Virus genome (UHGV): UHGV-0266384 | Source of the DNA: a virus | DNA: 10,593 nucleotides | Strand: one strand, 5' to 3' | Shown here: in pieces, positions 1 through 10,525 of the stretch | How the letters are laid out: the number at the start of each line of letters is the position of its first letter | Position numbering within the stretch: position 1 is the stretch's first letter | The notes under the pieces: generated by a model | The model's input: the letters and a program-made list of their open reading frames with translations, nothing else | Told to the model about the DNA's origin: nothing | Databases searched by the model: none | Position numbers and translations under genes: made by a program

Positions 1-1
1 G

Positions 2-121
2 AACAATAACGGTAAATACCGCACTTACAACTTACGTGGTGAAAGAGTGAAAGATGAAAAACCACAGTTAAGTTTGTTATTGCAAGTGCTGACAGACGAG
101 AAGCGTTTTATCGCTAACTGA
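2..121 (+). CDS. C-terminal 39 codons of an upstream chromosomal gene (partial; 5' end outside window)
   Basis: Open frame enters from the window edge (...NNNGKYRTYNLRGERVKDEKPQLSLLLQVLTDEKRFIAN) and stops at TGA 119-121, followed by a 12-bp inverted repeat. It lies directly upstream of tRNA-Pro; in E. coli K-12 this position is occupied by yejM (lapC) as far as I recall, but 39 residues are not enough for me to confirm identity. Confidence 0.5.
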   Translation, partial: NNNGKYRTYNLRGERVKDEKPQLSLLLQVLTDEKRFIAN

Positions 122-143
122 TTAATTATAAATCAGTTAGCGA
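112..143 (+). terminator. Perfect 12-bp inverted repeat (CGCTAACTGATT / AATCAGTTAGCG, 8-nt loop) overlapping the stop codon of the upstream gene
   Basis: Seen directly in sequence. There is no clean U-run after it, so it may be a weak terminator or a protein-binding site. Confidence 0.35.
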
Positions 144-153
144 AATATCTTAC

Positions 154-181
154 TTGCAATCGGTGTGGAAAACGGTAGTAT
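154..181 (+). promoter_or_regulatory. Sigma70-type promoter for the tRNA gene
   Basis: TTGCAA (154-159), 16-bp spacer, TAGTAT (176-181); the mature tRNA 5' end is 15 nt downstream. Confidence 0.5.
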
Positions 182-195
182 TAGCAGCCACGAGT

Positions 196-272
196 CGGCA
201 CGTAGCGCAGCCTGGTAGCGCACCGTCATGGGGTGTCGGGGGTCGGAGGTTCAAATCCTCTCGTGCCGACCA
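196..272 (+). tRNA. proL: tRNA-Pro, anticodon GGG, with encoded CCA end
   Basis: 77-nt cloverleaf read by hand: acceptor CGGCACG/CGTGCCG, D-arm GCGC-AGCCTGGTA-GCGC, anticodon loop AUGGGGU (anticodon GGG), T-arm GGAGG-TTCAAAT-CCTCT, then ACCA. Matches my memory of E. coli proL. Confidence 0.9.
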
Positions 273-279
273 AATCGCC

Positions 280-380
280 CACCGGATACCACCGGAATTA
301 ACAGTTTTTAGACACGAAAAGCCCGCTAATCCTTGATTGGCGGGTTTTTTTATGTTTTTTAGTCACCGAACATCACCGGA
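280..380 (+). repeat. Two pairs of tandem CACCGGA heptamers with 10-bp phasing, between the tRNA and int (candidate integrase arm-type or AlpA binding sites)
   Basis: CACCGGA at 280-286 and 290-296; CACCGAA at 364-370 and CACCGGA at 374-380. A third identical pair lies upstream of alpA (2194-2200, 2204-2210). Confidence 0.45.
322..351 (+). terminator. Rho-independent terminator of the tRNA transcript
   Basis: Stem CCCGCTAATC / GATTGGCGGG (one G-U pair), 3-nt loop, followed by TTTTTTT. Confidence 0.75.
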
Positions 381-405
381 TTTATAAGCTATCAGCCGGA
401 TTTTT

Positions 406-457
406 TAGTTATACGTTTAGTTATACGGGCTGGCGTATAACTAAAGCCGTATAACTA
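406..457. repeat. Four copies of the 10-mer TAGTTATACG in a symmetric array (two direct, two inverted) in the int promoter region
   Basis: TAGTTATACG at 406-415 and 418-427; reverse complement CGTATAACTA at 434-443 and 448-457. Sits 35-85 bp upstream of the int start. Confidence 0.5.
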
Positions 458-490
458 AAACCCTGTTTTTTCGTGTGGAATCATAGGCAT

Positions 491-1732
491 ATGGCGAGAA
501 AAACAACCCCATTAACTACAGTGCAGATCAAAGCAGCCAGGCCAGCTGAAAAGGAGTACACCCTACAGGACGGCGGGGGGCTTTTTCTCCTGGTCAAACC
601 GTCCGGATCAAAACTCTGGCGATTTTCCTACTACCGCCCGTCTGACAAAAAAAGAATATTGCTGAGTTTTGGATCACTTGATGATGTTTCCCTGGCTGAT
701 GCCAGAAAACGCCGTAGCGAGTACAGGACGTTAATCAGTGCCGGAACTGACCCGCAGGACCATGAACGGAAAAAACGTGAGGCAGAGGCCATAAGACAGG
801 GGAACACGTTCGAAAATGTGGCGGCAGCATGGTACAAGGTGAAAATCAGCCAGAATCTGGCCCCCAATACGATTAAAGACATCTGGAGATCGCTGGAAAA
901 ATATGTATTCCCGTTCATCGGTAACACGCCAATAGACACCCTGACCGCTCGCAGGTTCGTTGAGGTGCTTACCCCCATCAAGGAACGTGGCAACCTGGAA
1001 ACACTCAAACGGGTTTTACAGCGAGTCAATGAAGTAATGGATTACGCCGCCAACAGTGGGCTTATTGATACCAATCCGGCTATGAATGTGCGTAAGGCGT
1101 TCCCCTCCCCTGTAAAAAAACATATGCCAACAATCCGCCCCGAGCAGCTACCGGAGCTTATGCAGGCTTTATCAGTATCGGCAACAGAACGGCAGACCAG
1201 ATTACTGATTGAATGGCAGTTACTGACCGTAACCCGTCCCGCCGAAGCGTCATCAACGCGGTGGGATGAAATCGACATGGACGCGAAGCGATGGACGATA
1301 CCCGCCGGACGCATGAAGATGCGGCGTGATCACGTTATCCCGCTTTGTAGTCAGGCCATGGCAGTACTTGAAGCTATGAAGCCAATCAGCCACCACCGTG
1401 ATTACGTTTTCCCGAGTCTGAAAGACCCACGGCAGCCTATGAACAGCCAGACCGCCAACGCAGCATTGAGGCGTATGGGGTTTGGCGGGGTTCTGGTTTC
1501 TCACGGTATGCGAGCCATATTCAGCACCGCAGCGAACGAAGAAGGATTTGAGCCGGACGTAATCGAGGCCGCACTAGCCCACGTGGACACCAACGAAGTG
1601 AGACGGGCATACAACCGGAGCAACTACATAGAAAAACGCATTGTGCTTATGCGCTGGTGGGGCGAATTTGTCGAGGCTGCGGCGACGGGCGTAACCCTGG
1701 CCAGTGGTAAAAGGGGTATCCGAGCCGTGTAG
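491..1732 (+). CDS. int: Tyrosine site-specific integrase, P4/CP4-57 type, with N-terminal arm-binding domain
   Basis: 413 aa from ATG 491 (the track's GTG 473 start is in the same frame). N-terminus LTTVQIKAARPAEKEYTLQDGGGLFLLVKPSGSKLWRFSYY is the classic P4-integrase arm-binding (DUF4102-type) signature. The C-terminus carries the catalytic HxxR / Y region (HGMRAIFSTAANEEG ... RRAYNRSNYIEKR). Position next to a tRNA 3' end in the same orientation is typical. Confidence 0.92.
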   Translation: MARKTTPLTTVQIKAARPAEKEYTLQDGGGLFLLVKPSGSKLWRFSYYRPSDKKRILLSFGSLDDVSLADARKRRSEYRTLISAGTDPQDHERKKREAEAIRQGNTFENVAAAWYKVKISQNLAPNTIKDIWRSLEKYVFPFIGNTPIDTLTARRFVEVLTPIKERGNLETLKRVLQRVNEVMDYAANSGLIDTNPAMNVRKAFPSPVKKHMPTIRPEQLPELMQALSVSATERQTRLLIEWQLLTVTRPAEASSTRWDEIDMDAKRWTIPAGRMKMRRDHVIPLCSQAMAVLEAMKPISHHRDYVFPSLKDPRQPMNSQTANAALRRMGFGGVLVSHGMRAIFSTAANEEGFEPDVIEAALAHVDTNEVRRAYNRSNYIEKRIVLMRWWGEFVEAAATGVTLASGKRGIRAV

Positions 1733-1740
1733 CTGTACAG

Positions 1741-1785
1741 AAAACCAGTAAAAACTACGAAAACCATGTAAAACCGTCGTATAAT
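1741..1785 (+). promoter_or_regulatory. Phased A-tracts (curved-DNA / UP-like element) followed by a perfect TATAAT
   Basis: AAAACC-type tracts at 1741, 1751, 1760 and 1770 (about 10-bp period), then TATAAT at 1780-1785. There is no good -35 hexamer. Confidence 0.35.
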
Positions 1786-1809
1786 TGCATCAAATTTAAC
1801 GACAAGGCC

Positions 1810-2061
1810 GTGAAACATGAAACCGTTAAGATGCAAAAAAATATCAGATGCAATTGCGACGGGCTGCAACTGGCCCTGATGGTTCAGCATGAATTTTGGT
1901 CAACCTACGATCCGGAGGACAGGACGACGGCCCCATCAAAAAAACAGGTAGTAGATTTTCTGGTATCCCGTGGCGCTTCCAGAAATCTGGCGGTAAGTAT
2001 TGATAAGGTCGTACGTCCGGCATCTATGAAGATCGGAGGCAGGCCCAAAAAATGGCGGTAA
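1810..2061 (+). CDS. Hypothetical small basic protein (83 aa from GTG 1810; alternative ATG start at 1831)
   Basis: ORF followed 11 nt later by a strong intrinsic terminator. I do not recognise a family; the C-terminus GGRPKKWR is AT-hook-like. The start codon is uncertain and the Shine-Dalgarno is weak. Confidence 0.4.
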   Translation: MKHETVKMQKNIRCNCDGLQLALMVQHEFWSTYDPEDRTTAPSKKQVVDFLVSRGASRNLAVSIDKVVRPASMKIGGRPKKWR

Positions 2062-2072
2062 CAATCCTGGAA

Positions 2073-2095
2073 GCGGCAGAAATGCCGCTTTTTTT
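2073..2095 (+). terminator. Rho-independent terminator
   Basis: GCGGCA-GAAA-TGCCGC followed by TTTTTTT. Confidence 0.8.
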
Positions 2096-2124
2096 ATAAT
2101 TCCATTTCAAATCATCAATATAAA

Positions 2125-2210
2125 AAACGGTGTATACCGTTTAAAAACGGTGGGAACTGTTTTTACCCATATCCGATGATTTACCGTATTTGTCACCGGA
2201 ATACACCGGA
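2125..2210 (+). promoter_or_regulatory. alpA upstream control region with palindromes and a CACCGGA tandem pair
   Basis: AACGGTGTATACCGTT palindrome (2127-2142), overlapping ACCGTTTAAAAACGGT, then CACCGGA at 2194-2200 and 2204-2210. Confidence 0.4.
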
Positions 2211-2228
2211 TTCACAAGGTAAATCACG

Positions 2229-2435
2229 ATGGAAGCAATCAGAAAAATTATCTTTCGCCAGGAAGTAAAAAAAATTATCCACATCAAGGCAGACAGCACG
2301 CTGCAAAGCATGATCAACGCCGGAGAATTTCCGCAGGGTTTTCGCGTTGGTTTACGCCGTCGCGGATGGTATGAGGATGATGTGTTGGCCTGGCAGAAAG
2401 AACGCGAACAGGAAGCACGCGGAACGGCTGCTTAA
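2229..2435 (+). CDS. alpA: AlpA-family phage transcriptional regulator / excisionase-like (MerR-type HTH)
   Basis: 68 aa. The stretch RQEVKKIIHIKADSTLQSMINAGEFPQGFRVGLRRRGWYEDDVLAW fits the AlpA pattern (helix ... GEFP ... G.R...W...V..W) as I remember it from CP4-57 AlpA. The int - small ORF - alpA order is typical of P4-like islands and PICIs. Confidence 0.8.
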   Translation: MEAIRKIIFRQEVKKIIHIKADSTLQSMINAGEFPQGFRVGLRRRGWYEDDVLAWQKEREQEARGTAA

Positions 2436-2583
2436 CGGGTATCACAGATATGACAAACACGAAAAAAGCGGCCCCGATATGGAGCCGTCTTTCTGAACAG
2501 ATAACCCGCTGCGCTGTTTGTGTGTGTGATCCCAAACATAAGCACGGGGATGATAGCCGCTATCAGGCTGGTGGGCAATGCAA

Positions 2584-2760
2584 TCAGTCTGGTTCAGTTC
2601 GTTGCCATAACTGCGAAGCTCTCTCCTTTGATGAGTATTCTTTAAGGTACTTCTCAAGGGCAAAAGAACACGGCGCGAATCGTTCTGATTCATGCTCTTT
2701 CTTTCTGCGTCGTCTTTTTCGTGCAGGTGATGTTTTTTCGGTTGATTCTTCGTTGGTCAT
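2584..2760 (-). CDS. Hypothetical small basic protein (58 aa), below the ORF-track length cutoff
   Basis: Hand translation of the minus strand: MTNEESTEKTSPARKRRRRKKEHESERFAPCSFALEKYLKEYSSKERASQLWQRTEPD. It is in the same frame as the RHH ORF at 2818-2997 and separated from it only by one TAA and 19 sense codons. Shine-Dalgarno is weak. Confidence 0.3.
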   Translation of the reverse strand: MTNEESTEKTSPARKRRRRKKEHESERFAPCSFALEKYLKEYSSKERASQLWQRTEPD

Positions 2761-2817
2761 TGTGTGCGCCTGTAAAGCAATGCGCCGGAGTACCTCACAC
2801 CACGGCGCTGATAGTTT

Positions 2818-2997
2818 TTATCCTTTGGGTTCTATGCCGCGTTGCTGTAATTCTTTGCGGATTATTCGCTTTATCCAGGCAGCAAGAGAATCATCGCCGT
2901 CCTGTTGTTGTGCCTTTTCCATCTTTTCCCGTAAGTCAGGATCTAAACGGAACTGGAACGGAGGATTACCACGCCTTTCGTTTTTGTGTGTTGACAC
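2818..2997 (-). CDS. Ribbon-helix-helix (Arc/CopG-like) small DNA-binding protein, 59 aa, candidate repressor of the divergent switch
   Basis: Hand translation of the minus strand from GTG (SD GAGGTG 8 nt upstream): MSTHKNERRGNPPFQFRLDPDLREKMEKAQQQDGDDSLAAWIKRIIRKELQQRGIEPKG. The pattern of a beta-strand with alternating hydrophobics (FQFRL), then helix, then Gly-containing turn, then helix is that of Arc-family RHH proteins. Missing from the ORF track only because it is under 60 aa. Confidence 0.55.
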   Translation of the reverse strand: MSTHKNERRGNPPFQFRLDPDLREKMEKAQQQDGDDSLAAWIKRIIRKELQQRGIEPKG

Positions 2998-3046
2998 GTT
3001 AATTACACCTCATGTAATGTATTTATGTGTAATGACACATTACACA
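2991..3046 (+). promoter_or_regulatory. Early rightward promoter with operator palindromes
   Basis: Perfect -35 TTGACA (2991-2996), 16-bp spacer, -10 TGTAAT (3013-3018). A 21-bp perfect palindrome TGTGTAATG-ACA-CATTACACA (3026-3046) lies just downstream, with a third TGTAATG half-site at 3013-3019 overlapping the -10. The -35 overlaps the start codon of the minus-strand RHH ORF. Confidence 0.6.
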
Positions 3047-3126
3047 CAATCAACACAAAAAGCAAAGCCCCGCACTGTAGGAGCAGTAACGGGGCTTCTA
3101 ACCAACAACGTAAACTAGGAGCCGTT

Positions 3127-3324
3127 ATGGTTGCCGTAAATCATATACCACACCTTGTACACACACAAACGGCCTTTGTGTGGCGTTTTCTGGCACTGAG
3201 TGCCGGAGAATCTCAAATCATCCACGTAACCGCCTGGACGGAACGCGAAGCGCGTAGCCGTTGCCCGTCCGGTTGTGTTGCTGTATTCGCCGCCCGTATT
3301 CGTCAGGGGTCACATCATGCGTAA
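3127..3324 (+). CDS. Icd-like small protein (host cell-division inhibitor family), 65 aa
   Basis: Strong SD AGGAG 6 nt upstream of ATG 3127 (the track's longer 3025 start lacks an SD). Motifs FVWRFLALS ... TEREAR ... FAARIRQG resemble the P1 Icd / P4-like Icd-like family as I recall it. A paralogous C-terminus is repeated in the next gene. Confidence 0.5.
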   Translation: MVAVNHIPHLVHTQTAFVWRFLALSAGESQIIHVTAWTEREARSRCPSGCVAVFAARIRQGSHHA

Positions 3325-3781
3325 AAACCGCTTGCAAAAAATTATCACGGGGCTGTATGCTTCCCCCGTCGCCCACATGGCGACCGGGTTTGACAGCCTG
3401 AATACATCTGGCGGACAGCCGCCCACATCCGATAAGCGGTTTTTTTGTGTCCGTAAACCTACCCATACCCGCATTATGGCGGGGCGTAACGGGGGAGCCT
3501 TTGTGCTCGCTGGTTTCCAGATGACCAGTCTGTCAACCCTGTTACGTCTCGCCACCATGTTTGACAGCGTAGTAGCGAGACTCCTTAAAATTCATCTGGG
3601 AGCCTTTCACATGGCTGTATCCGCACGCCCTTATTTTGTCTGGCGCTTTATGCAGTGCCTGACAGACAGTATTGCAATATTCACCGTTACCGCTGCCACT
3701 GAGCGCGAAGCACGTGCACAGCTGCCGCACGCACATCTTATTTTTGTCGCCCGTATTCGCCAGGGGGGGAGTCATGCATAA
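3317..3781 (+). CDS. Ash-like / Icd-like protein (154 aa), or alternatively only the C-terminal 56-aa Icd-like paralog starting at ATG 3611
   Basis: ATG 3317 overlaps the previous stop (ATGCGTAA) with SD AGGGG upstream. The C-terminal 56 aa (YFVWRFMQCL ... TEREARAQ ... FVARIRQGG) are paralogous to the gene at 3127-3324 and have their own SD (GGGAG) and ATG at 3611. The N-terminal 98 codons overlap a repeat-rich, hairpin-rich region, so their coding status is uncertain. Confidence 0.45.
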   Translation: MRKNRLQKIITGLYASPVAHMATGFDSLNTSGGQPPTSDKRFFCVRKPTHTRIMAGRNGGAFVLAGFQMTSLSTLLRLATMFDSVVARLLKIHLGAFHMAVSARPYFVWRFMQCLTDSIAIFTVTAATEREARAQLPHAHLIFVARIRQGGSHA

Positions 3782-4001
3782 AATACCCTTTGATGTTCTT
3801 GTTCATTCTGAAAACGCATTAATCCGCGCAAAGGAAATGGACGCATTACTACTTAAGTTAATTGATGTGCCGGAAAGTGGCGATGAATCTGATTCAATGA
3901 TGTTTTCTGCCGTGCGTACGCTATTAACGCCTGTTATTAATGAATTAAATACAGTGATGGCAATTCACGAGAATAATAAAGCGCAGCACACCGGAGAATA
4001 A
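3774..4001 (+). CDS. Hypothetical small acidic protein (75 aa)
   Basis: ATG 3774 overlaps the previous stop (ATGCATAA) and follows a strong SD GGGGGGGAG. MHKIPFDVLVHSENALIRAKEMDALLLKLIDVPESGDESDSMMF... No family recognised. The track's longer 3672 start is unlikely. Confidence 0.55.
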   Translation: MHKIPFDVLVHSENALIRAKEMDALLLKLIDVPESGDESDSMMFSAVRTLLTPVINELNTVMAIHENNKAQHTGE

Positions 4002-4006
4002 AAAAC

Positions 4007-4306
4007 ATGAAAAATAAAAATTCTGGCGTTACTGCCAGCGGCCCCGCTCGTCCTGAATTTATGAACGGCGATATTTACCGCGATAAATATGGCGGCATGG
4101 TAACGATTAAAGGCGTGGCAGAACGGCGCATCACCTACCGTCGTGAAGGCTACGAATATGATTGCGTGATGCCTGTTTATCAGTTTCGGCGTGATTTTTC
4201 TCTGGTACAGGCAGCGCCCCGCAGTAAACCAACCAGCAGGGAGAAAGCACGCGCCAATATTCAGGAAATAAAAAAGATGCTTAACGTATTCAGGGGTAAA
4301 AAATGA
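4007..4306 (+). CDS. Hypothetical small protein (99 aa), translationally coupled to the primase; possibly DUF4222-like
   Basis: SD GGAGA upstream of ATG 4007; the stop overlaps the primase start (ATGA). The motif YRDKYGGMVTIKGV...RRITYRREGYEYDCVMPVYQFRRDF reminds me of a small prophage DUF family, but I cannot confirm it. Confidence 0.55.
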   Translation: MKNKNSGVTASGPARPEFMNGDIYRDKYGGMVTIKGVAERRITYRREGYEYDCVMPVYQFRRDFSLVQAAPRSKPTSREKARANIQEIKKMLNVFRGKK

Positions 4307-6051
4307 AACTGGCACCGAACGTAAAAAAACAGCCACGCGGAATAAAACACAAAGACACAGAGGTAATTATTTTCGCGGGTAGTGATGCCTGGTCGCACGC
4401 GAAACAATGGCAGGAGCAGGATGGCCCCGCATCCGGCGATAATGTGCCGCCTGTGTGGCTTGGGCCAAATCAGCTTGCCGAACTTGATGCACTGAAAATT
4501 GTTCCGGATGGGAAAAAGCGCGTAAGGCTGTACCAGGCCGGAGAACTGGATTTGGTGGAGACCAAAAAGATTGGTCAGAAGCTGGCGGCGGCAGATATTC
4601 AGGACGCAAATTTTTACCCCGAAGGAATGCACGTCCAGAAGTGTGAAAACTGGCGGCGCTATCTGAATGCTGAGCGTGAAAATATTGCCGCAGGGCTTAC
4701 CATGCCGGAGCAGAAAAATACGCAACTGGCACAAATGGCAGACAGTGAGCGCGCGCAGCTGCTTGCCGAGCGCTTTGATGGCGTTTGTGTGCATCCGGAA
4801 AGTGAAATCGTTCACGTATGGCGCGGCGGGGTATGGTGTCCGGTCAGCACAATGGAACTTAGCCGCGAAATGGTGGCGATCTATTCAGAGCACAGGGCCA
4901 CTTTCAGCAAGCGCGTAATCAATAACGCCGTGGAGGCGTTAAAAGTTATTGCCGAACCAATGGGCGAGCCGTCCGGCGATTTGCTGCCGTTCGCCAATGG
5001 TGCGCTTGACCTGAAAACGGGGGAATTTTCCCCGCACACGCCGGAGAACTGGATCACCACGCACAACGGCATTGAGTACACGCCACCAGCACCAGGGGAG
5101 AATATCTGCGACAACGCGCCAAACTTTCATAAATGGCTTGAGCACGCAGCCGGAAAAGACCCGCGCAAGATGATGCGTATATGTGCCGCGCTGTACATGA
5201 TTATGGCGAACCGGTACGACTGGCAGATGTTTATTGAGGCCACCGGAGACGGCGGGAGCGGCAAAAGTACATTCACCCACATCGCCAGCCTTTTAGCGGG
5301 GAAACAAAACACGGTAAGCGCGGAAATGACATCGCTTGATGATGCTGGTGGGCGTGCGCAGGTTGTCGGGAGTCGTCTTATCGTCCTGGCAGACCAGCCG
5401 AAATATACAGGCGAAGGCACGGGCATCAAGAAAATCACGGGCGGCGACCCCGTGGAAATCAACCCGAAATATGAAAAGCGTTTCACTACGGTAATCAGGG
5501 CGGTGGTGCTGGCGACCAATAACAACCCGATGATATTCACCGAACGGGCCGGAGGCGTGTCACGTCGTCGGGTTATTTTCCGCTTCGACAATATCGTAAG
5601 CGAGGCAGAAAAAGACAGGGAGCTACCGGAAAAGATCGCGGCTGAAATCCCTGTCATTATCCGCCGCTTGCTGGCGAACTTTACCGACCCTGAGAAGGCA
5701 CGGGCTTTACTACTGGAACAGCGTGACGGTGATGAAGCTCTGGCAATAAAGCAACAGACGGATCCGGTTATTGAGTTTTGCCAGTTCCTGAATTTTCTGG
5801 AGGAAGCACGCGGCCTGATGATGGGCGGCGGTGGCGATTCAGTGAAGTACACAACCAGAAACAGCCTTTACCGCGTCTATCTGGCGTTTATGGCATACGC
5901 AGGCAGGAGCAAACCGCTAAACGTGGCTGAGTTCAGCAAGGCCATGAAGCCAGCGGCAAAAGTTTACGGACATGAATATATTACGCGGAGAGTTAAGGGA
6001 GTAACGCAGACCAACGCAATTACAACTGATGATTGTGACGCGTTTTTATAA
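4303..6051 (+). CDS. Primase-helicase, P4 alpha / D5-like SF3 helicase (the PICI pri-rep equivalent)
   Basis: 582 aa. SF3 helicase motifs are present: Walker A GDGGSGKST (about nt 5245-5271), motif B RLIVLAD, motif C VVLATNNNP. It is immediately followed by an iteron array, as expected for a replication initiator. Confidence 0.85.
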   Translation: MKLAPNVKKQPRGIKHKDTEVIIFAGSDAWSHAKQWQEQDGPASGDNVPPVWLGPNQLAELDALKIVPDGKKRVRLYQAGELDLVETKKIGQKLAAADIQDANFYPEGMHVQKCENWRRYLNAERENIAAGLTMPEQKNTQLAQMADSERAQLLAERFDGVCVHPESEIVHVWRGGVWCPVSTMELSREMVAIYSEHRATFSKRVINNAVEALKVIAEPMGEPSGDLLPFANGALDLKTGEFSPHTPENWITTHNGIEYTPPAPGENICDNAPNFHKWLEHAAGKDPRKMMRICAALYMIMANRYDWQMFIEATGDGGSGKSTFTHIASLLAGKQNTVSAEMTSLDDAGGRAQVVGSRLIVLADQPKYTGEGTGIKKITGGDPVEINPKYEKRFTTVIRAVVLATNNNPMIFTERAGGVSRRRVIFRFDNIVSEAEKDRELPEKIAAEIPVIIRRLLANFTDPEKARALLLEQRDGDEALAIKQQTDPVIEFCQFLNFLEEARGLMMGGGGDSVKYTTRNSLYRVYLAFMAYAGRSKPLNVAEFSKAMKPAAKVYGHEYITRRVKGVTQTNAITTDDCDAFL

Positions 6052-6065
6052 TTTTTTGTAAAAGT

Positions 6066-6289
6066 CCTCTACCCCATCCACCTGAATGAAATAAACGCAT
6101 ATTATTCAACATGATAAGTGGGTAGAGGGCTAGGTAGAAGGCTAATAAAACCTCTCTACCTCTTCTACCATGATTAAGATCGTTTGTGAGGGGCGGGTAG
6201 AGGATGGGTAGAGGGCCACGAAAGCCCTCTACCCATCTGAAAGCCGCGCCATTACTGACATGAAAGATGATTAGGTAGAGAGGTAGAGG
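6066..6289. repeat. Iteron-type replication origin (candidate ori): at least 9 copies of GGTAGAGG / CCTCTACC
   Basis: GGTAGAGG or one-mismatch variants at 6121, 6133, 6196, 6207, 6274 and 6282; CCTCTACC or variants at 6066, 6151-6170 and 6226. Includes the perfect inverted pair GGGTAGAGGGC-7nt-GCCCTCTACCC (6206-6234). AT-rich spacers lie between the copies. Confidence 0.7.
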
Positions 6290-6337
6290 AGGTGCACCAC
6301 AACCTAAAACTTTTTAAACACGAGAGTAAAAATAAAA

Positions 6338-6616
6338 ATGCACACATCAGGAAGATTTAACAAATCACTCAAAAAACGCAAAGACAGAACAGCACCAAGA
6401 TATAAAGCGCTGGAGATGACAGAGCACGCCTTAAAGGTGGCTATAAAGGTGATAGACATCACAGCGGGAGAAGGATACTCGAAAGCACATCCCGAACTAA
6501 TAAGCGCATTCATGACCACGGCGGCGGCAAACTTTGCCACGCTGACAGAGCGGGAGATTGCAGAAGCGGAACAGGTAACAACCATCAACGTTAAAACCGG
6601 AGAGCAGACAGCATGA
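6338..6616 (+). CDS. Hypothetical protein (92 aa), translationally coupled to ssb
   Basis: The ORF's stop overlaps the ssb start (ATGA). No family recognised and the start codon is uncertain (weak SD). Confidence 0.45.
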   Translation: MHTSGRFNKSLKKRKDRTAPRYKALEMTEHALKVAIKVIDITAGEGYSKAHPELISAFMTTAAANFATLTEREIAEAEQVTTINVKTGEQTA

Positions 6617-7023
6617 CAGCACAGATAGCGGCTTACGGGCGGCTGGTGGACGACCCGCAGGTAAAACAGACCAGCAAGGGCACACCAATGACGCTGGCAC
6701 GTATGGCGGTATCGTTGCCATGTAGTCAGGCGCAGGATGGGCAGGCTACGTTATGGCTATCGGTGATGGCATTTGGTAAGCAGGCCGACTTCCTGGCTAA
6801 ACATCAAAAAGGCGACGTTGCCAGCGTATCCGGCACGATGCAGGTCAGCCAGTGGACCGGACAGAACGGGGAAACGCGGCAGGGTTATCAGGTTATTGCA
6901 GACAGCGTAATCAGTGCCCGTGCGGCACGTCCTGGCGGGAACAGACGCAAAACCACAGGCACACAGGGTAATCAGCCACCAGCGGGAGGCGATGACCCTT
7001 ACGGTGATGATATTCCGTTCTGA
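6613..7023 (+). CDS. ssb: Single-stranded DNA-binding protein (phage-type SSB)
   Basis: 136 aa with an OB-fold-like N-terminal region and a Gly/Pro-rich tail ending in the hallmark acidic C-terminus ...DDPYGDDIPF (E. coli SSB ends ...DFDDDIPF). Confidence 0.8.
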   Translation: MTAQIAAYGRLVDDPQVKQTSKGTPMTLARMAVSLPCSQAQDGQATLWLSVMAFGKQADFLAKHQKGDVASVSGTMQVSQWTGQNGETRQGYQVIADSVISARAARPGGNRRKTTGTQGNQPPAGGDDPYGDDIPF

Positions 7024-7033
7024 GGGGGTGAGG

Positions 7034-7306
7034 ATGGTACATGACCGCATAGCGGAGGAACTCGAGGCAAAAGGCTTTTACCGGAGGGCGGCGGCACGAT
7101 GGGGTGAAGTCATGCAGCTGGTGGAGACAGACAAGGAACGGCATCAGGTTACGATGCGACGGCTGGAATGTTCCAGGAAGGCACAGAGGCCACCGGAGCC
7201 GCCGGATAACTTCGGAGACCTGAGAAAGGCAGTCGATCGCACTTATGCTGAAATGGGTATAGATGGTGTAAGCGATGAAATATGGCGTAATTACCCAGGC
7301 AGCTAA
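7034..7306 (+). CDS. PerC/Pch-family-like transcriptional regulator (90 aa)
   Basis: ATG 7034 with SD GGGGGTGAGG (the track's 6914 start would overlap ssb). The N-terminal motif RIAEELEAKGFYRRAAARWGEVM resembles the PerC family signature as I recall it. Followed by two terminators. Confidence 0.45.
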   Translation: MVHDRIAEELEAKGFYRRAAARWGEVMQLVETDKERHQVTMRRLECSRKAQRPPEPPDNFGDLRKAVDRTYAEMGIDGVSDEIWRNYPGS

Positions 7307-7311
7307 TCAAC

Positions 7312-7334
7312 AGCCGGAGTAATCCGGCTTTTTT
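7312..7334 (+). terminator. Rho-independent terminator
   Basis: AGCCGGA-GTAA-TCCGGCT followed by TTTTT. Confidence 0.8.
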
Positions 7335-7340
7335 GTACCC

Positions 7341-7383
7341 AAAAAAAGCCCGATAAGTACAGGAGGCATCTTATCGGGCTTTT
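7341..7383. terminator. Second hairpin, potentially a bidirectional terminator
   Basis: AAAAAAA, then GCCCGATAAG - 12-nt loop - CTTATCGGGC, then TTTT. Confidence 0.6.
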
Positions 7384-7461
7384 GCATATGAGGTTTTTTT
7401 TGGCGCACTGACACACATGATCGGGATCATCATTTCATAATTTGCAACACAACTCAACATC

Positions 7462-7490
7462 ATTGCATAAAATGCAATCATGATTATAAT
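7462..7490 (+). promoter_or_regulatory. Late (capsid operon) promoter with operator palindrome
   Basis: -35 TTGCAT (7463-7468), 16-bp spacer, perfect -10 TATAAT (7485-7490). The 17-bp perfect palindrome ATTGCAT-AAA-ATGCAAT (7462-7478) overlaps the -35. Confidence 0.55.
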
Positions 7491-7546
7491 CAGATCTGGA
7501 TGAACATCCAGTTATGATTTTTTAAGTCAAAGAGGAATTTCTTACT

Positions 7547-7753
7547 ATGGCTGAAGAGAAAAAAGGCGGTGTTTCGGTGTACATAAGCCCCGACATCGTG
7601 AAGGCGCTCAAGGAACGCCACCAGCAGAACGTAAAAGCAGGCATTGCGGCAGGACTTGATCCGCTGGCGATGGTTGAGCCGTCAACAGGCTGGCAGGTAC
7701 GCGCCTATTTACGCGCGGCGCTGGGTATGAATCAGGTTCACGGGGGTGAATAA
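7547..7753 (+). CDS. Hypothetical small protein (68 aa), first gene of the capsid operon
   Basis: SD AGAGGA 9 nt upstream of the ATG; the stop overlaps the major capsid start by 1 nt (TAATG). No family recognised; position suggests a scaffold or assembly role. Confidence 0.55.
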   Translation: MAEEKKGGVSVYISPDIVKALKERHQQNVKAGIAAGLDPLAMVEPSTGWQVRAYLRAALGMNQVHGGE

Positions 7754-8808
7754 TGACAGTAAAAGCAATATCACTTAACACTAACCAGCTTTTTGCGTAC
7801 CTGAATCGCGAGGATATTGCGGAATTTAAATTCAGTCCGCTGTTTACCGCGCTGTTTTTCCCGAACGTGGCGACATTCAACACACAGGACATCATGTTAG
7901 ATAACCTGGATATTGAAGAAGTCACTATGTCGGCGTTTTGTTCGCCTATGGTGGGTAGCCAGGTTCAGCGCGATAAAGGGTACGAAACAAGCATTATTCG
8001 CCCTGGCTACATGAAGCCAAAACACGAAATCGATCCATTAAAAACAATAATGCGCATGGCTGGAGAAGATCCAGCACAGCTTAACGACCCTACCTACCGC
8101 CGTATGCGCCTGATTACTGGCAACATGCGCCGCCAGATAAACGCCATTAAAGCGCGCGTGGAATGGCTGGCGGTAAATGCGGTAACGACCGGAAAAAACA
8201 TCATTGAGGGCGAAGGCATAGAGCGCTATGAAATCGACTGGAAGATACCGGAAAAAAACATCATAGAGCAGGCCGACGGTAAAAAATGGTCAGAGCAGGA
8301 CAAAGACATACACGACCCAATCTATGACATTGAGCTATACGCAGATCAGGCAGGTTGCCCCGCAAACGTCATGATTATGGGCGTTGATGTATGGCGCATG
8401 TTACGCAGCTTTAAAAAATTCCGTGAACTGTACGATCTCTCCCGTGGTTCAGAATCCGCCGCAGAGCTGGCATGTAAAAACCTGGGAGAAGTGGTGAGCT
8501 TTAAAGGCTATCTTGGTGATCTGGCCCTTATCGTCTATTCCGGCAAATACACTGACAGCGACGGCACAGAAAAATATTTCCTTGAGCCTGATTTGCTGGT
8601 CCTGGGCAACACCAACAATAAAGGGCTGGTGGCCTATGGTGCGATTATGGAACAGGAAGCGGTAAGAACGGGCGCAACGCAAAACATGTTTTACCCGAAA
8701 AACTGGATTGAAGACGGCGATCCGGCGATTGAGTACGTGCAGACACACAGCGCACCGCAGCCTGTTCCGGCAGATATTCGCAAATTTGTTACCGTCAAAA
8801 TTGGTTAA
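7753..8808 (+). CDS. Major capsid protein, lambda gpE family
   Basis: 351 aa with multiple blocks matching lambda gpE from memory: EFKFSPLF (KFKFDPLF), RPGYMKPKHEIDP (TPGYVKPKHEVNP), DPTYRRMRLITGNMR (DPAYRRRRIIMQNMR), LGDLALIVYSGKY (YGDVAIVVYSGQY), YPKNWIEDGDPAIEY (YPKNWVTTGDPAREF), C-terminal KFVTVKIG (EFVSVQLA). Confidence 0.88.
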   Translation: MTVKAISLNTNQLFAYLNREDIAEFKFSPLFTALFFPNVATFNTQDIMLDNLDIEEVTMSAFCSPMVGSQVQRDKGYETSIIRPGYMKPKHEIDPLKTIMRMAGEDPAQLNDPTYRRMRLITGNMRRQINAIKARVEWLAVNAVTTGKNIIEGEGIERYEIDWKIPEKNIIEQADGKKWSEQDKDIHDPIYDIELYADQAGCPANVMIMGVDVWRMLRSFKKFRELYDLSRGSESAAELACKNLGEVVSFKGYLGDLALIVYSGKYTDSDGTEKYFLEPDLLVLGNTNNKGLVAYGAIMEQEAVRTGATQNMFYPKNWIEDGDPAIEYVQTHSAPQPVPADIRKFVTVKIG

Positions 8809-8819
8809 CGGTGGATTCT

Positions 8820-9155
8820 ATGAACACTCCATACATTGAGTTATTTGCAGGCAGTCAGCAGGTATCAACGACGCTGGTACATTTTGCCGCTGATGCTGGC
8901 GTTATTCAGGAATTTACCCCGCTGATGCTGGCGGACAATGGCGAGTTTAAGCCGTGGGATGGTCAGGAATCTGGCAAGGCTGTTTATCTGACCTCGTACC
9001 CCGTTGACACGTCGACGCAGAAATCAGCACAGTGCTATAAGACGGGGATATTCAATATCGCCGCCGTTAACTGGCCTGAGAGCGTCGACACCGATGCGAA
9101 AAAATGCGCCGCCTTTGCGGGTTCTGGCGTATCCGTTCAGCCGCTGGCCCGATAA
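8820..9155 (+). CDS. Head decoration protein, lambda gpD family
   Basis: 111 aa from ATG 8820 (the track's GTG 8811 is in the same frame). TPLMLADNGEFKPWDG matches lambda gpD TPLMLDTSSRKLVAWDG; YKTGIF...WPE...DAKKCAAFAGSGVSV matches gpD YKSGTF...WPE...ETKKRTAFAGTAISIV. Confidence 0.75.
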   Translation: MNTPYIELFAGSQQVSTTLVHFAADAGVIQEFTPLMLADNGEFKPWDGQESGKAVYLTSYPVDTSTQKSAQCYKTGIFNIAAVNWPESVDTDAKKCAAFAGSGVSVQPLAR

Positions 9156-9167
9156 GCAGGGGGAACG

Positions 9168-9581
9168 ATGGCAACGAATGAAAGCATCATGGCGCTACCG
9201 CTGGCGAGTAAATTTAAAGCCGAAGCGCGGGCAATGGCTGACAGAGGGTTATCAACCTACGAGGCCGTATATCAACTCAACAAACTGGAAGAACAGGACA
9301 AGCCGCGCGCTGATGCGATTATGGCGCTTCATGAACATAACGACTATCAGCCGCTGTTACGTGCAATGGCAAACGTGCCATGTATTAGCGTCGATAATGC
9401 TCGTGAAATCCTGAACATGACCATAGAGCAGGAGCGCCCAAAGGTTGCACCAGAGCTTACCGCAGCCTTTGAAAACTTTATGGACATGCACAGCCCGCAA
9501 GCCGTATCAGCTGGCATGGCATACGATGGCAGAAACCAGGGCGATGACGGCGACATCGATCACATACTGAAAACCATCTGA
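9168..9581 (+). CDS. Hypothetical protein (137 aa), last gene before cos; possibly packaging- or head-related
   Basis: Strong SD GGGGGA upstream of the ATG; followed by a strong terminator. No family recognised and no clear match to lambda FI or FII. Confidence 0.6.
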   Translation: MATNESIMALPLASKFKAEARAMADRGLSTYEAVYQLNKLEEQDKPRADAIMALHEHNDYQPLLRAMANVPCISVDNAREILNMTIEQERPKVAPELTAAFENFMDMHSPQAVSAGMAYDGRNQGDDGDIDHILKTI

Positions 9582-9587
9582 GACAAG

Positions 9588-9611
9588 GCCGGAGAAATCC
9601 GGCTTTTTTTT
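9588..9611 (+). terminator. Rho-independent terminator of the capsid operon
   Basis: GCCGGA-GAAA-TCCGGC followed by eight T residues. Confidence 0.85.
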
Positions 9612-9830
9612 ACGGGTCCTTTCCGGCATATGGACCCGTTACGGGGCGGCGACCTCGCGCGTTTTCACTATTTATGAAAATTTTCCGGGATCCATGTCCG
9701 GTTTCTCTGCAAGTTAACCATATGAAAAATATAAAAACATGCTTTCTATGAACCGGACATGCGCAAAAAACAGACACTAAAACCGGACATCGTACCCGTT
9801 AACCGGAAGTGTGCAAAAATCACACGCATT
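9609..9830 (+). other. Lambda-type cos site, copy 1: cosQ-like, cosN, and cosB with R-like repeats
   Basis: TTACGGGTCCTTTCCGG ... GTTACGGGGCGGCGACCTCGCG ... GTTTTC(A)CTATTTATGAAAATTTTCCGG is near-identical to the lambda cos junction as I remember it. The 12-nt cohesive end GGGCGGCGACCT is at 9644-9655. Downstream there are three or four AACCGGACAT(G/C)-type repeats in both orientations (9691-9826), consistent with terminase small-subunit binding sites. Confidence 0.8.
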
Positions 9831-10099
9831 GCTGCGCGTGATTAACAATTTATCGGCTTTACTGTTCTGTATAGGCTGGGTGGCGTCATGCCGTAGCCGT
9901 TCTCCGTGCCAGCATGGAATAATCCGTAGTTACAGAGCGGTAAAGTTAAAAATCACTTTCTGTTACGCCATCAAATACGCGATACAACAACCATGTGTTT
10001 TTACAAAACCATTTGATATCATTGAATTTTTTCACATTAATGACATCAAAATACATCGTAAGGTTGTTGTATTTATTTTATTTTTACCTTACTTATCAA

Positions 10100-10213
10100 T
10101 TAGATATACCAAACAATTAAACAACAACCACCCCCTCAAAAAATCTCATAAATAGCGAAAAACCGCGAGGTCGCCGCCCCGTAACGGGCCATAATTCCAG
10201 GAAGGACCCGACG
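10100..10213 (-). other. Second lambda-type cos site (copy 2) in inverted orientation, with a divergent cosB-side flank
   Basis: The reverse complement reads CGGGTCCTTCCTGG ... CCCGTTACGGGGCGGCGACCTCGCGG TTTTTCGCTATTTATGAGATTTT. cosN is identical to copy 1 over 25 bp (10164-10188 against 9635-9659), with the GGGCGGCGACCT complement at 10168-10179. The flank beyond TATTTATGA differs (GAGGGGGTGGTTGTTGTTTAATTG...). Confidence 0.75.
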
Positions 10214-10243
10214 ACACCAGACTATCAGAGCGATGGGGGCACA

Positions 10244-10525
10244 ATGACAGAAGCCGAACTACTGGGATTAATCCGCCGCGTTACCGGAATCAGCCAGCAG
10301 CATGACGAACAGGCCACACAGCCGGACAGCGTGACCGCTGAAAATTATGTGCGTGTTGTTGCTGAGGTGATGCGCCGTGATGGTATAGAACTTAATGGCG
10401 TGGATATGCGCAACATACGAACCAGAGTTCTTGAGTTGCTGGCCTACCGTCGCCGCGTGGAGATGTATCGGGAGAAGGAGAAAATAACGTACCACTGGAA
10501 GAAGCCGGAACGACTGCGTACGTAA
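10244..10525 (+). CDS. Hypothetical protein (93 aa) immediately distal to the cos region
   Basis: SD GGGGG upstream of ATG 10244; the stop is embedded in a 17-bp perfect palindrome CGTACGTA-A-TACGTACG (10517-10533). No family recognised. Its position next to cos suggests a packaging-related role, but this is not supported by sequence. Confidence 0.5.
   Translation: MTEAELLGLIRRVTGISQQHDEQATQPDSVTAENYVRVVAEVMRRDGIELNGVDMRNIRTRVLELLAYRRRVEMYREKEKITYHWKKPERLRT

Follow-up and report, generated by a model that had tools for sequence, protein, structure and literature searches.

Two facing lambda-type cos sites with different cosB flanks in an EcCICFT073-family satellite island, a probable adaptation to helper phages of different terminase specificity

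The stretch analysed here, UHGV virus genome UHGV-0266384 (10,593 nucleotides, the whole of which is called the window), is, judged by its sequence, a phage-inducible chromosomal island (PICI) of the EcCICFT073 family integrated at tRNA-Pro. The island carries two lambda-type cos sites in head-to-head orientation, which have the same cohesive ends and unlike cosB flanks. The pair is probably the packaging module of the island, with the two cosBs suited to the specificities of the small terminase subunits (TerS) of different helpers. An earlier note made from the letters alone had described two complete facing cos units with dissimilar cosB flanks, and this description was confirmed by a repeat finder, a direct check of the core and alignment to lambda. 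Its further idea, that two helpers with different TerS-cosB recognition are involved, is the best reading because the two cosBs match separate phage lineages, the left that of PhiR12-like lambdoid phages and the right, in its R3 element, that of N15.

The repeat finder returned two inverted arms of 72 nt each that are 83% complementary. Within them lies a 25-bp core, CCCGTTACGGGGCGGCGACCTCGCG, which direct checking showed to be a perfect inverted repeat (9635-9659 versus 10164-10188); a repeat of this kind within 10.6 kb is far beyond chance. The elements of the two sites are as follows.

9613-9684, plus strand: left inverted-repeat arm, equal to the left cos core (cosQ, cosN and I2-like segment), from the repeat finder and the lambda alignment
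9614-9620, plus strand: left cosQ heptamer GGGTCCT, from comparison of the window with the lambda right end
9644-9655, plus strand: left cosN with the 12-nt cohesive end GGGCGGCGACCT; predicted packaging direction rightwards
9694-9790, plus strand: left cosB, of the published EcCICFT073 cos2 type, with ATGTCCGGTT at 9694-9703 (+51, the R3 position) and inverted AACCGGACAT at 9751-9760 and 9781-9790
9984-10129, minus strand: right cosB, with R3 at 10121-10129 (+51, direct), R2 at 10062-10070 (+110, inverted) and R1 at 9984-9992 (+188, direct)
10139-10210, minus strand: right inverted-repeat arm, equal to the right cos core, from the repeat finder and the lambda alignment
10168-10179, minus strand: right cosN, the reverse complement of GGGCGGCGACCT on the plus strand; predicted packaging direction leftwards
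10203-10209, minus strand: right cosQ heptamer GGGTCCT, 30 bp upstream of cosN

The true lambda genome ends (NC_001416) served as reference, and their junction was aligned with both window copies. Both arms equal lambda in cosQ, in TTACG-GGGCGGCGACCT-CGCG and in TTTTC(A/G)CTATTTATGA, and diverge beyond. In both, the distance from the start of cosQ to the first G of cosN is 30 bp, as at the lambda right end. The lambda cos sequence that the earlier note had given proved correct against these ends; its core coordinates and AT-rich interior were also right, the 504 bp separating the cores having a GC content of 36.9% versus 49.5% for the whole window. Each site also has repeated R elements beyond the arm, the first at +51 from cosN. 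Both window sites hold every sequence element of a lambda-type cos.

Compared with lambda cos (cosQ-cosN-I2-cosB, with cosB arranged R3-I1-R2-R1), the cosQ, the 30-bp spacing and the 12-nt cohesive end are identical and I2 is nearly so. The position of the first lambda R element at about +51 and the direct-inverted-direct order of the R elements are both matched by the right site of the window. The lambda R sequences, CGTTTCC(T/G)TTCT, are in contrast unrelated to those of the window, which also differs in having two inverted copies with no terminase genes after either.

The left cosB is built on AACCGGACAT, which occurs in the window, directly or as its complement, three times (at the left cosB positions listed above; chance expectation 0.03). 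Window 9613-9878 is 94% identical by BLAST to the reverse complement of the cos2 side in E. coli CFT073, and the left cosB agrees with the cos2 sequence printed in Fig. S1A of the EcCICFT073 work (PMC6739421). The same segment is 94% identical to phages of the PhiR12_1/PhiR12 group, in which the matching cosB lies directly upstream of Nu1. PhiR12-type cosB-Nu1 junctions were found in 1156 of 5426 complete E. coli genomes, and four strains, S1-CAM-02-A, STEC2018-607, NCTC9112 and SCU-172, carry such a junction together with a window-type module. The cos of PhiR12-like phages and prophages (PV340549; the S1-CAM-02-A prophage) is nearly identical to the left cos from cosN through R3 and two copies of AACCGGACAT, and the S1-CAM-02-A prophage differs from it at 4 positions between cosN and the second AACCGGACAT. 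The phage site then runs on into an R1-like CATGACCGGTTT and Nu1, whereas the island diverges there and has no terS following. This comparison marks the left cosB as a true phage cosB, and the left cos as in essence that of PhiR12-like lambdoid prophages. The icd prophage of CFT073 itself was ruled out as a match for cos2, its cosB being phage 21-like; it was the sole CFT073 lambdoid prophage cos examined.

The right cosB consists of three copies of GGTTGTTGT separated by AT-rich spacers, in the order of lambda R3, R2 and R1. The element occurs exactly three times in the window, all at the positions listed (chance expectation 0.14). Phage N15 and Enterobacter phage MStein-2023a share its R3 core, GGTTGTTGTTTAAT, in the alignment. 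R3 of N15 has been mapped to bp 48-60 (Murialdo and Feiss 2022, PMC9026076), and the core lies at bp 50-63 in N15 cos versus 51-64 in the right cos of the window. N15 has a single R3 only (PMC9026076), whereas the right cos has two further R copies, and the N15 cosN reads GGGCGGCGTCCG whereas that of the window is lambda-type. In sister islands, cos sites related to the right one stand ahead of an island gene for a Nu1-family TerS with 46% identity to N15 gp1. An origin of the right cosB from phage-plasmids was considered and rejected: N15-like Enterobacter plasmids match it through R3 only, at about 76-78% identity.

The earlier note had held that no satellite with dual inverted cos sites was described. 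Such a satellite has in fact been published: EcCICFT073 "carries two cosN sequences" (Fillol-Salom et al. 2018 ISME J, PMC6092414), and its cos1 and cos2 are functional (PMC6092414; PMC6739421); on the CFT073 chromosome they lie head-to-head around rppA. Either cos, when cloned, gives plasmid transfer by lambda and phi80 (PMC6092414); deletion of cos1 lowers transfer of the island and deletion of both abolishes it (PMC6092414; PMC6739421). RppA (c1503) binds the phage TerS and redirects packaging to the cos1 cosB (2019 Mol Cell, PMC6739421), and the cos1 and cos2 sequences are both printed in Figure S1A of that paper (PMC6739421). No phage cosB could be recognised in EcCICFT073 by the original authors (PMC6092414; PMC6739421), and cos2, dispensable with lambda and phi80, is left unexplained in the published work (PMC6092414). 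In the later literature searched for cos2 or the inverted geometry, cos2 was mentioned in the 2018 and 2019 papers only, and it is not discussed in the 2022 analysis of Murialdo and Feiss (PMC9026076). SaPIbov4, a Staphylococcus aureus pathogenicity island (SaPI), is also cited with two putative cos sites (PMC6092414). The cos-type SaPIs (SaPIbov5, SaPIbov4) resemble the window island as satellites that have the cos of a helper and lack a terminase of their own; they differ in being Gram-positive elements, unrelated in lineage and in sequence.

In the CFT073 genome, the inverted arms of cos1 and cos2 are found at 37528-37604 and 38262-38338 of the fetched locus (L004), around rppA at 37659-38093. 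This cos1-rppA-cos2 module occupies the same slot as that of the window, between the genes of a 137-aa and a 93-aa protein. The outer cosQ arms and the head-to-head geometry are the same, and the left flank and left arm are collinear. The window differs in having only a 22-codon relic of rppA, in lacking the cos1-type cosB (GTGAAGGTGACACCACCACCAC) and in having as second site the cosB with GGTTGTTGT repeats. Its interior is also flipped relative to EcCICFT073, the cos2-type cosB adjoining the 137-aa gene in the window and the 93-aa gene in EcCICFT073. Cleavage by terminase and use as start and end of packaging in vivo, shown for the homologous cos1 and cos2 of EcCICFT073, are putative for the window sites.

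The occurrence of such pairs was surveyed in IMG/VR loci and complete E. coli genomes. Eighty IMG/VR loci were fetched with the 137-aa protein as query, and every lambda-type cosN was classified together with its inner flank; a cross-species contig scan with the same protein gave 102 pattern matches, of which 0 were confirmed. Among the 67 informative loci, which contain both flanking genes, 52 have a head-to-head pair, eight a single cos and seven a single cos with a variant cosN. The arrangement is thus repeated in dozens of independent loci, and the possibility that relatives consistently carry one copy, which the earlier note had named as fatal to its view, did not hold. The inner flanks sort into seven types, T0 to T6.

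T2: the cos1 type, followed by rppA/B
T0: followed by a gene for a 180-aa Nu1-family TerS (Pfam PF07471, 78.8 bits; 46% identical to N15 gp1)
T1: the cos2 or PhiR12 type
T3 and T6: the type of the window's right site
T5: R3 region 88% identical to that of phage 21 cos
T4: similar to the site that precedes Nu1 in phage SerU-LTIIb

The pairs seen were T2/T1, T2/T6, T2/T3, T0/T4, T0/T5, T1/T3, T3/T1 and T1/T6. As far as sequence goes, these modules commonly join a site tied to an Rpp or TerS gene of the island with a phage-type site, and in subtypes other than that of the window the partner site has other phage-type cosBs, resembling those of phage 21 and SerU-LTIIb. The window has two paired cos sites and neither an Rpp nor a TerS gene.

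Several further observations were made on these loci. T0 is the commonest subtype, with 37 of 131 classified cos flanks (for example L023 3476-4163); its islands have a Nu1-family terS in place of Rpp, and a second, inverted, phage-type cos often follows the terS gene. The terS-linked cosB of T0 (L012, about 3520-3540) contains GGTGGTGGTGG, the reverse complement of a sequence, CACCACCACCAC, contained in the proposed Rpp-binding R3 of CFT073 cos1 (L004, about 37605-37625), at nearly the same distance from cosN. In E. coli Ch1 (L007, 3081 and 3852), both inverted arms have the same cosN variant, GGGCGTCGACCT, which suggests that the two arms evolve in concert, by gene conversion, or that selection favours cohesive ends that match. 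In seven loci (L053-L055, L083, L084, L086 and L087; for example L053 3440-3800), there is one cos only, whose cohesive-end region is different and contains CCACGGGGCGGGAGCGGCGCAG; a cosB of the CCGGACAT type and the opening codons of a Nu1 gene like that of PhiR12 come after it, as though this sub-group had captured a phage cos-Nu1 segment separately. Draft or metagenome contigs in IMG/VR (L021, L026, L038, L065, L077 and L081) end in or just before the cos arms, which may reflect assembly breaks at a repeat shared with prophages, or the presence of the segment in both orientations within a sample.

Between the two cosBs, the window retains traces of rpp.

9823-9840, minus strand: relic of the rpp terminator hairpin, inverted versus its CFT073 orientation (terminator scan; counterpart of the sequence that directly follows the rppA stop in CFT073)
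9875-9940, plus strand: rppA relic, the last 22 codons and stop (tblastn to residues 123-144, 73% identity, E = 1.5e-5)

At the nucleotide level, the rppA 3' end is 84.7% identical to CFT073 over 72 bp by BLAST (window 9874-9945). RppA had no further tblastn match anywhere in the window, and BLAST found no counterpart in CFT073 for 9946-10137. On both sides of the relic the rpp stop-codon region is duplicated in short inverted copies, CTTTACTGTTCTGTAT at 9857-9872 and, at about 9932-9945, ACAGAGCGGTAAAG, and the final ~50 nt of rpp are inverted relative to their own terminator relic; rpp was destroyed here by a local inversion or deletion, of which the region 9857-9945 is the scar. The cos1-type cosB has AGGTGACACCACCACCAC at bp 48-65, where both window cos sites differ, and neither clusters with T2. 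With no intact rpp and no cos1-type cosB, the window by its sequence lacks what Rpp-dependent redirection of packaging would need. No intact gene or promoter-like site was found in the interior. Its open reading frames (a 114-aa frame at 9811-10155 and a 36-codon one on the minus strand) were dismissed as genes; they are not conserved in the related T6 interior, and RefSeq annotates none. The 137-aa and 93-aa neighbours were also considered as Rpp homologues, and PDB sequence searches gave nothing at E <= 1.

A number of these findings weigh against two working cosBs. Decay of the interior, as seen in the rpp relic, means that one cos could be decaying too. The right cosB beside a terS was absent from the E. 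coli phages of the collections searched, and the only phage matches to it, about 76-80% identical over the arm and R3 only, are in N15-like Enterobacter elements. The left cosB leaves the phage sequence past the second AACCGGACAT, so that the phage R1 is not kept, and the joint presence of an island and a matching prophage was seen in the four strains named above, 21% being the background prevalence of PhiR12-type prophages. Deletion of cos2 raised transfer of EcCICFT073 by lambda and phi80 (PMC6092414); a second cos can therefore be a cost and not a benefit, at least with non-matching helpers. Functional proof, finally, is confined to the homologous EcCICFT073 sites, and action of the window cosBs with a matching helper is predicted by analogy to them.

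Part of this evidence would also fit an alternative in which only the left, PhiR12-type cos is used, the right one being a decaying leftover of an island-specific cos, formerly placed ahead of an rpp or terS gene, that now has no role or is a drag on packaging. The reduction of rpp to 22 codons with a small local inversion, the want of an E. coli phage with the right cosB in our searches and the gain in transfer upon cos2 deletion all agree with it, as does the resemblance of T3/T6-like cosBs to the T0 cosB, which in sister islands precedes the island terS, a gene the window does not have. However, the right site keeps cosQ, cosN, I2 and all three R elements at lambda-like positions, and among islands with up to 9% divergence in their flanks the interior stays 99.4-100% conserved. 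A T3/T6-type cosB was moreover found, at a coverage of at least 80%, in 294 genomes, and in islands that do contain rpp such a cosB acts as the partner site as well. On balance we consider a leftover right cos unlikely, though not negligible.

In the favoured explanation of two helper specificities, the complex of TerS with the large terminase subunit (TerL) from a helper would bind the matching cosB after induction and concatemeric replication of the island, nick that cosN and package away from cosQ up to the next cos of the same orientation. In lambda, termination needs cosQ and cosN in the same orientation; the facing site would therefore be ignored, and either site would yield a full island unit, in opposite directions. 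In this manner the island could, even without Rpp, use two or more terminase specificities. Two sites with identical cohesive ends would be made tolerable by the head-to-head geometry, because termination is orientation-dependent and the outer ends left by cuts at both sites cannot anneal together, so the interior would not be lost. Direct repeats would permit precise deletion. The same geometry would let the interior flip, consistent with the two orientations described below.

The earlier note had also suggested that the outward cos sites of an integrated island could drive packaging of flanking host DNA. This would amount to in-situ packaging of the chromosome in a manner like lateral transduction. 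The geometry, and the geometry only, speaks for this: the left cos would lead towards yejO/narP and the right cos through the island towards tRNA-Pro/yejM. In lambda, cos packaging needs a second cos of the same orientation about one capsid-length downstream, whereas the 28.7-kb locus, including 13.4 kb of host DNA to the right, contains the island's own two cos sites only. PICIs of the EcCICFT073 family excise and replicate on induction (PMC6092414), and cos phages are stated not to perform lateral transduction (PMC12829572). The analysis produced no evidence for the suggestion, which contradicts that statement (PMC12829572), and such packaging is extremely improbable.

The interior is found in both orientations in nature. 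E. coli STEC2018-607 has, at the same chromosomal site, a 98% identical module that is inverted relative to the flanking genes. Among complete genomes, nine have the window orientation and two match across the module only, a signature of an inverted copy, which was confirmed for STEC2018-607; the IMG/VR loci divide seven to four. Junction searches placed the PhiR12-type cosB beside the 137-aa gene in 31 genomes and beside the 93-aa gene in 41. The exchange point of the 535-bp interior lies inside the 25-bp core, in the cosN core, and the outer cosQ arms stay with the flanking genes. Orientation shows no relation to flank similarity. From cosN to cosN (9644-10179), the interior is 98.3-100% identical across the loci L005, L011-L030 and L074 (99.4-100% without L074), and the upstream 3 kb of the same islands are 91-99.9% identical. 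This contrast suggests that the interior module is exchanged between islands or strongly constrained. Modules with rpp or terS were seen in one orientation only, in 59 of 59 cases, from which we infer occasional flipping that is removed by selection when a gene is present.

These orientations could be taken to mean that the inverted pair is mainly a regulated invertible switch of the Hin/Gin type, controlling expression or packaging polarity through the 535-bp segment. Their counts, the exchange point within the common 25-bp core and the failure of orientation to follow flank similarity are all compatible with this. However, no invertase gene lies in or beside the segment, where the neighbours are capsid-related or of unknown function, and the only recombinase is the island integrase ~8 kb away. 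The interior has nothing intact to express, and the uniform orientation of the rpp and terS modules looks like occasional recombination filtered by selection. Homologous recombination between the arms, or their cutting by terminase and rejoining, would also be expected to give both orientations. A regulated switch is thus very improbable.

A more speculative possibility, which we think doubtful, is that the head-to-head pair forms a terminase-driven, self-protecting invertible cassette that flips packaging polarity, which would explain cos2 in EcCICFT073. Cuts at both cosN would free a 535-bp fragment with a 5'-GGGCGGCGACCT overhang at each end, and the outer ends would bear the complementary overhangs; the interior could therefore reinsert either way and could not be deleted. 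Each flip would change which cosB adjoins which flank, and the cassette would be a swappable unit by which satellites gain cosBs matching circulating helper prophages. An equally good explanation of the inversion is homologous recombination within the core.

The head-to-head two-cos layout itself has been published since 2018, and the window adds no new category. What sets this variant apart at the sequence level is the loss of rpp, the pairing of a PhiR12-type with an N15-like cosB and an interior that appears flippable. The main value of the analysis is a testable explanation for the second cos in the EcCICFT073 satellite family. A possible role for cos2 is suggested by its cosB, which is that of a prophage lineage carried by about one fifth of E. 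coli genomes and often co-resident with the island. Satellites may, as an idea open to testing, keep one Rpp- or TerS-dependent site and one copied from a helper; Rpp-less islands exist, and these appear to depend wholly on phage-type sites. A module that flips bears on the prediction of which phages mobilise such islands, which can carry virulence genes.

The island as a whole was placed by comparison with complete genomes. Window 9560-10260 is 100% identical in E. coli S1-CAM-02-A and the remaining window is 96-98% identical; the island there lies between tRNA-Pro/yejM and yejO, and tRNA-Pro(GGG) is found at window 196-272. Its gene order in S1-CAM-02-A is integrase, helix-turn-helix regulator, ash-family protein, Icd-like protein, DUF4222 protein, DNA primase family protein, single-stranded DNA-binding protein (SSB), PerC, major capsid protein, head decoration protein, 137-aa protein, cos pair and 93-aa protein, and the annotation of this genome shows no terminase, tail or lysis genes in the island. 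This content agrees with that expected of a Gram-negative cos PICI of the EcCICFT073 family: an integrase at one end by the attachment site, an AlpA-type regulator, a primase-replicase and a size of about 10-12 kb. The island is 89.8% identical to EcCICFT073 over window 3976-9690 (5.7 kb) and 89.2% over 10138-10518, in the same gene order, and the SSB has one protein accession in the S1-CAM-02-A island and EcCICFT073. No attL/attR direct repeats of at least 10 nt were found between the tRNA-Pro region and the right flank. Pfam and PHROG scans of the window returned the SSB, PerC and the two capsid proteins listed here with the other neighbours of the cos pair.

7753-8808, plus strand: lambda E-like major capsid protein (Pfam/PHROG); this and the D-like gene are equivalent to EcCICFT073 c1499 and c1500
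8811-9155, plus strand: lambda D-like decoration protein (Pfam/PHROG and CFT073 annotation)
9168-9581, plus strand: 137-aa protein, with its stop codon just before the terminator
9585-9606, plus strand: intrinsic terminator, GGCCGGA-GAAA-TCCGGC and a T run, ending the capsid-gene operon before the left cosQ (terminator scan)
10244-10525, plus strand: gene of the 93-aa protein (phrog_1561), the neighbour of the right arm throughout the family

Pfam gave no match for the 137-aa protein, which aligns with positions 494-567 of PHROG 53, head maturation protease (E = 7e-10). The matched region is C-terminal, the part that forms the scaffold in lambda C/Nu3. Together with the E-like capsid and D-like decoration genes, the 137-aa gene could, on these matches, make up a small capsid module; c1499 and c1500 gave no phenotype in the 2018 paper (PMC6092414). 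Finally, the island is a mosaic across strains by sequence comparison, because its cos region matches that of locus L001 at 100% identity, whereas its integrase-proximal 3.2 kb (window 1-3210) match at only 96.2% and are offset by a 359-bp indel.

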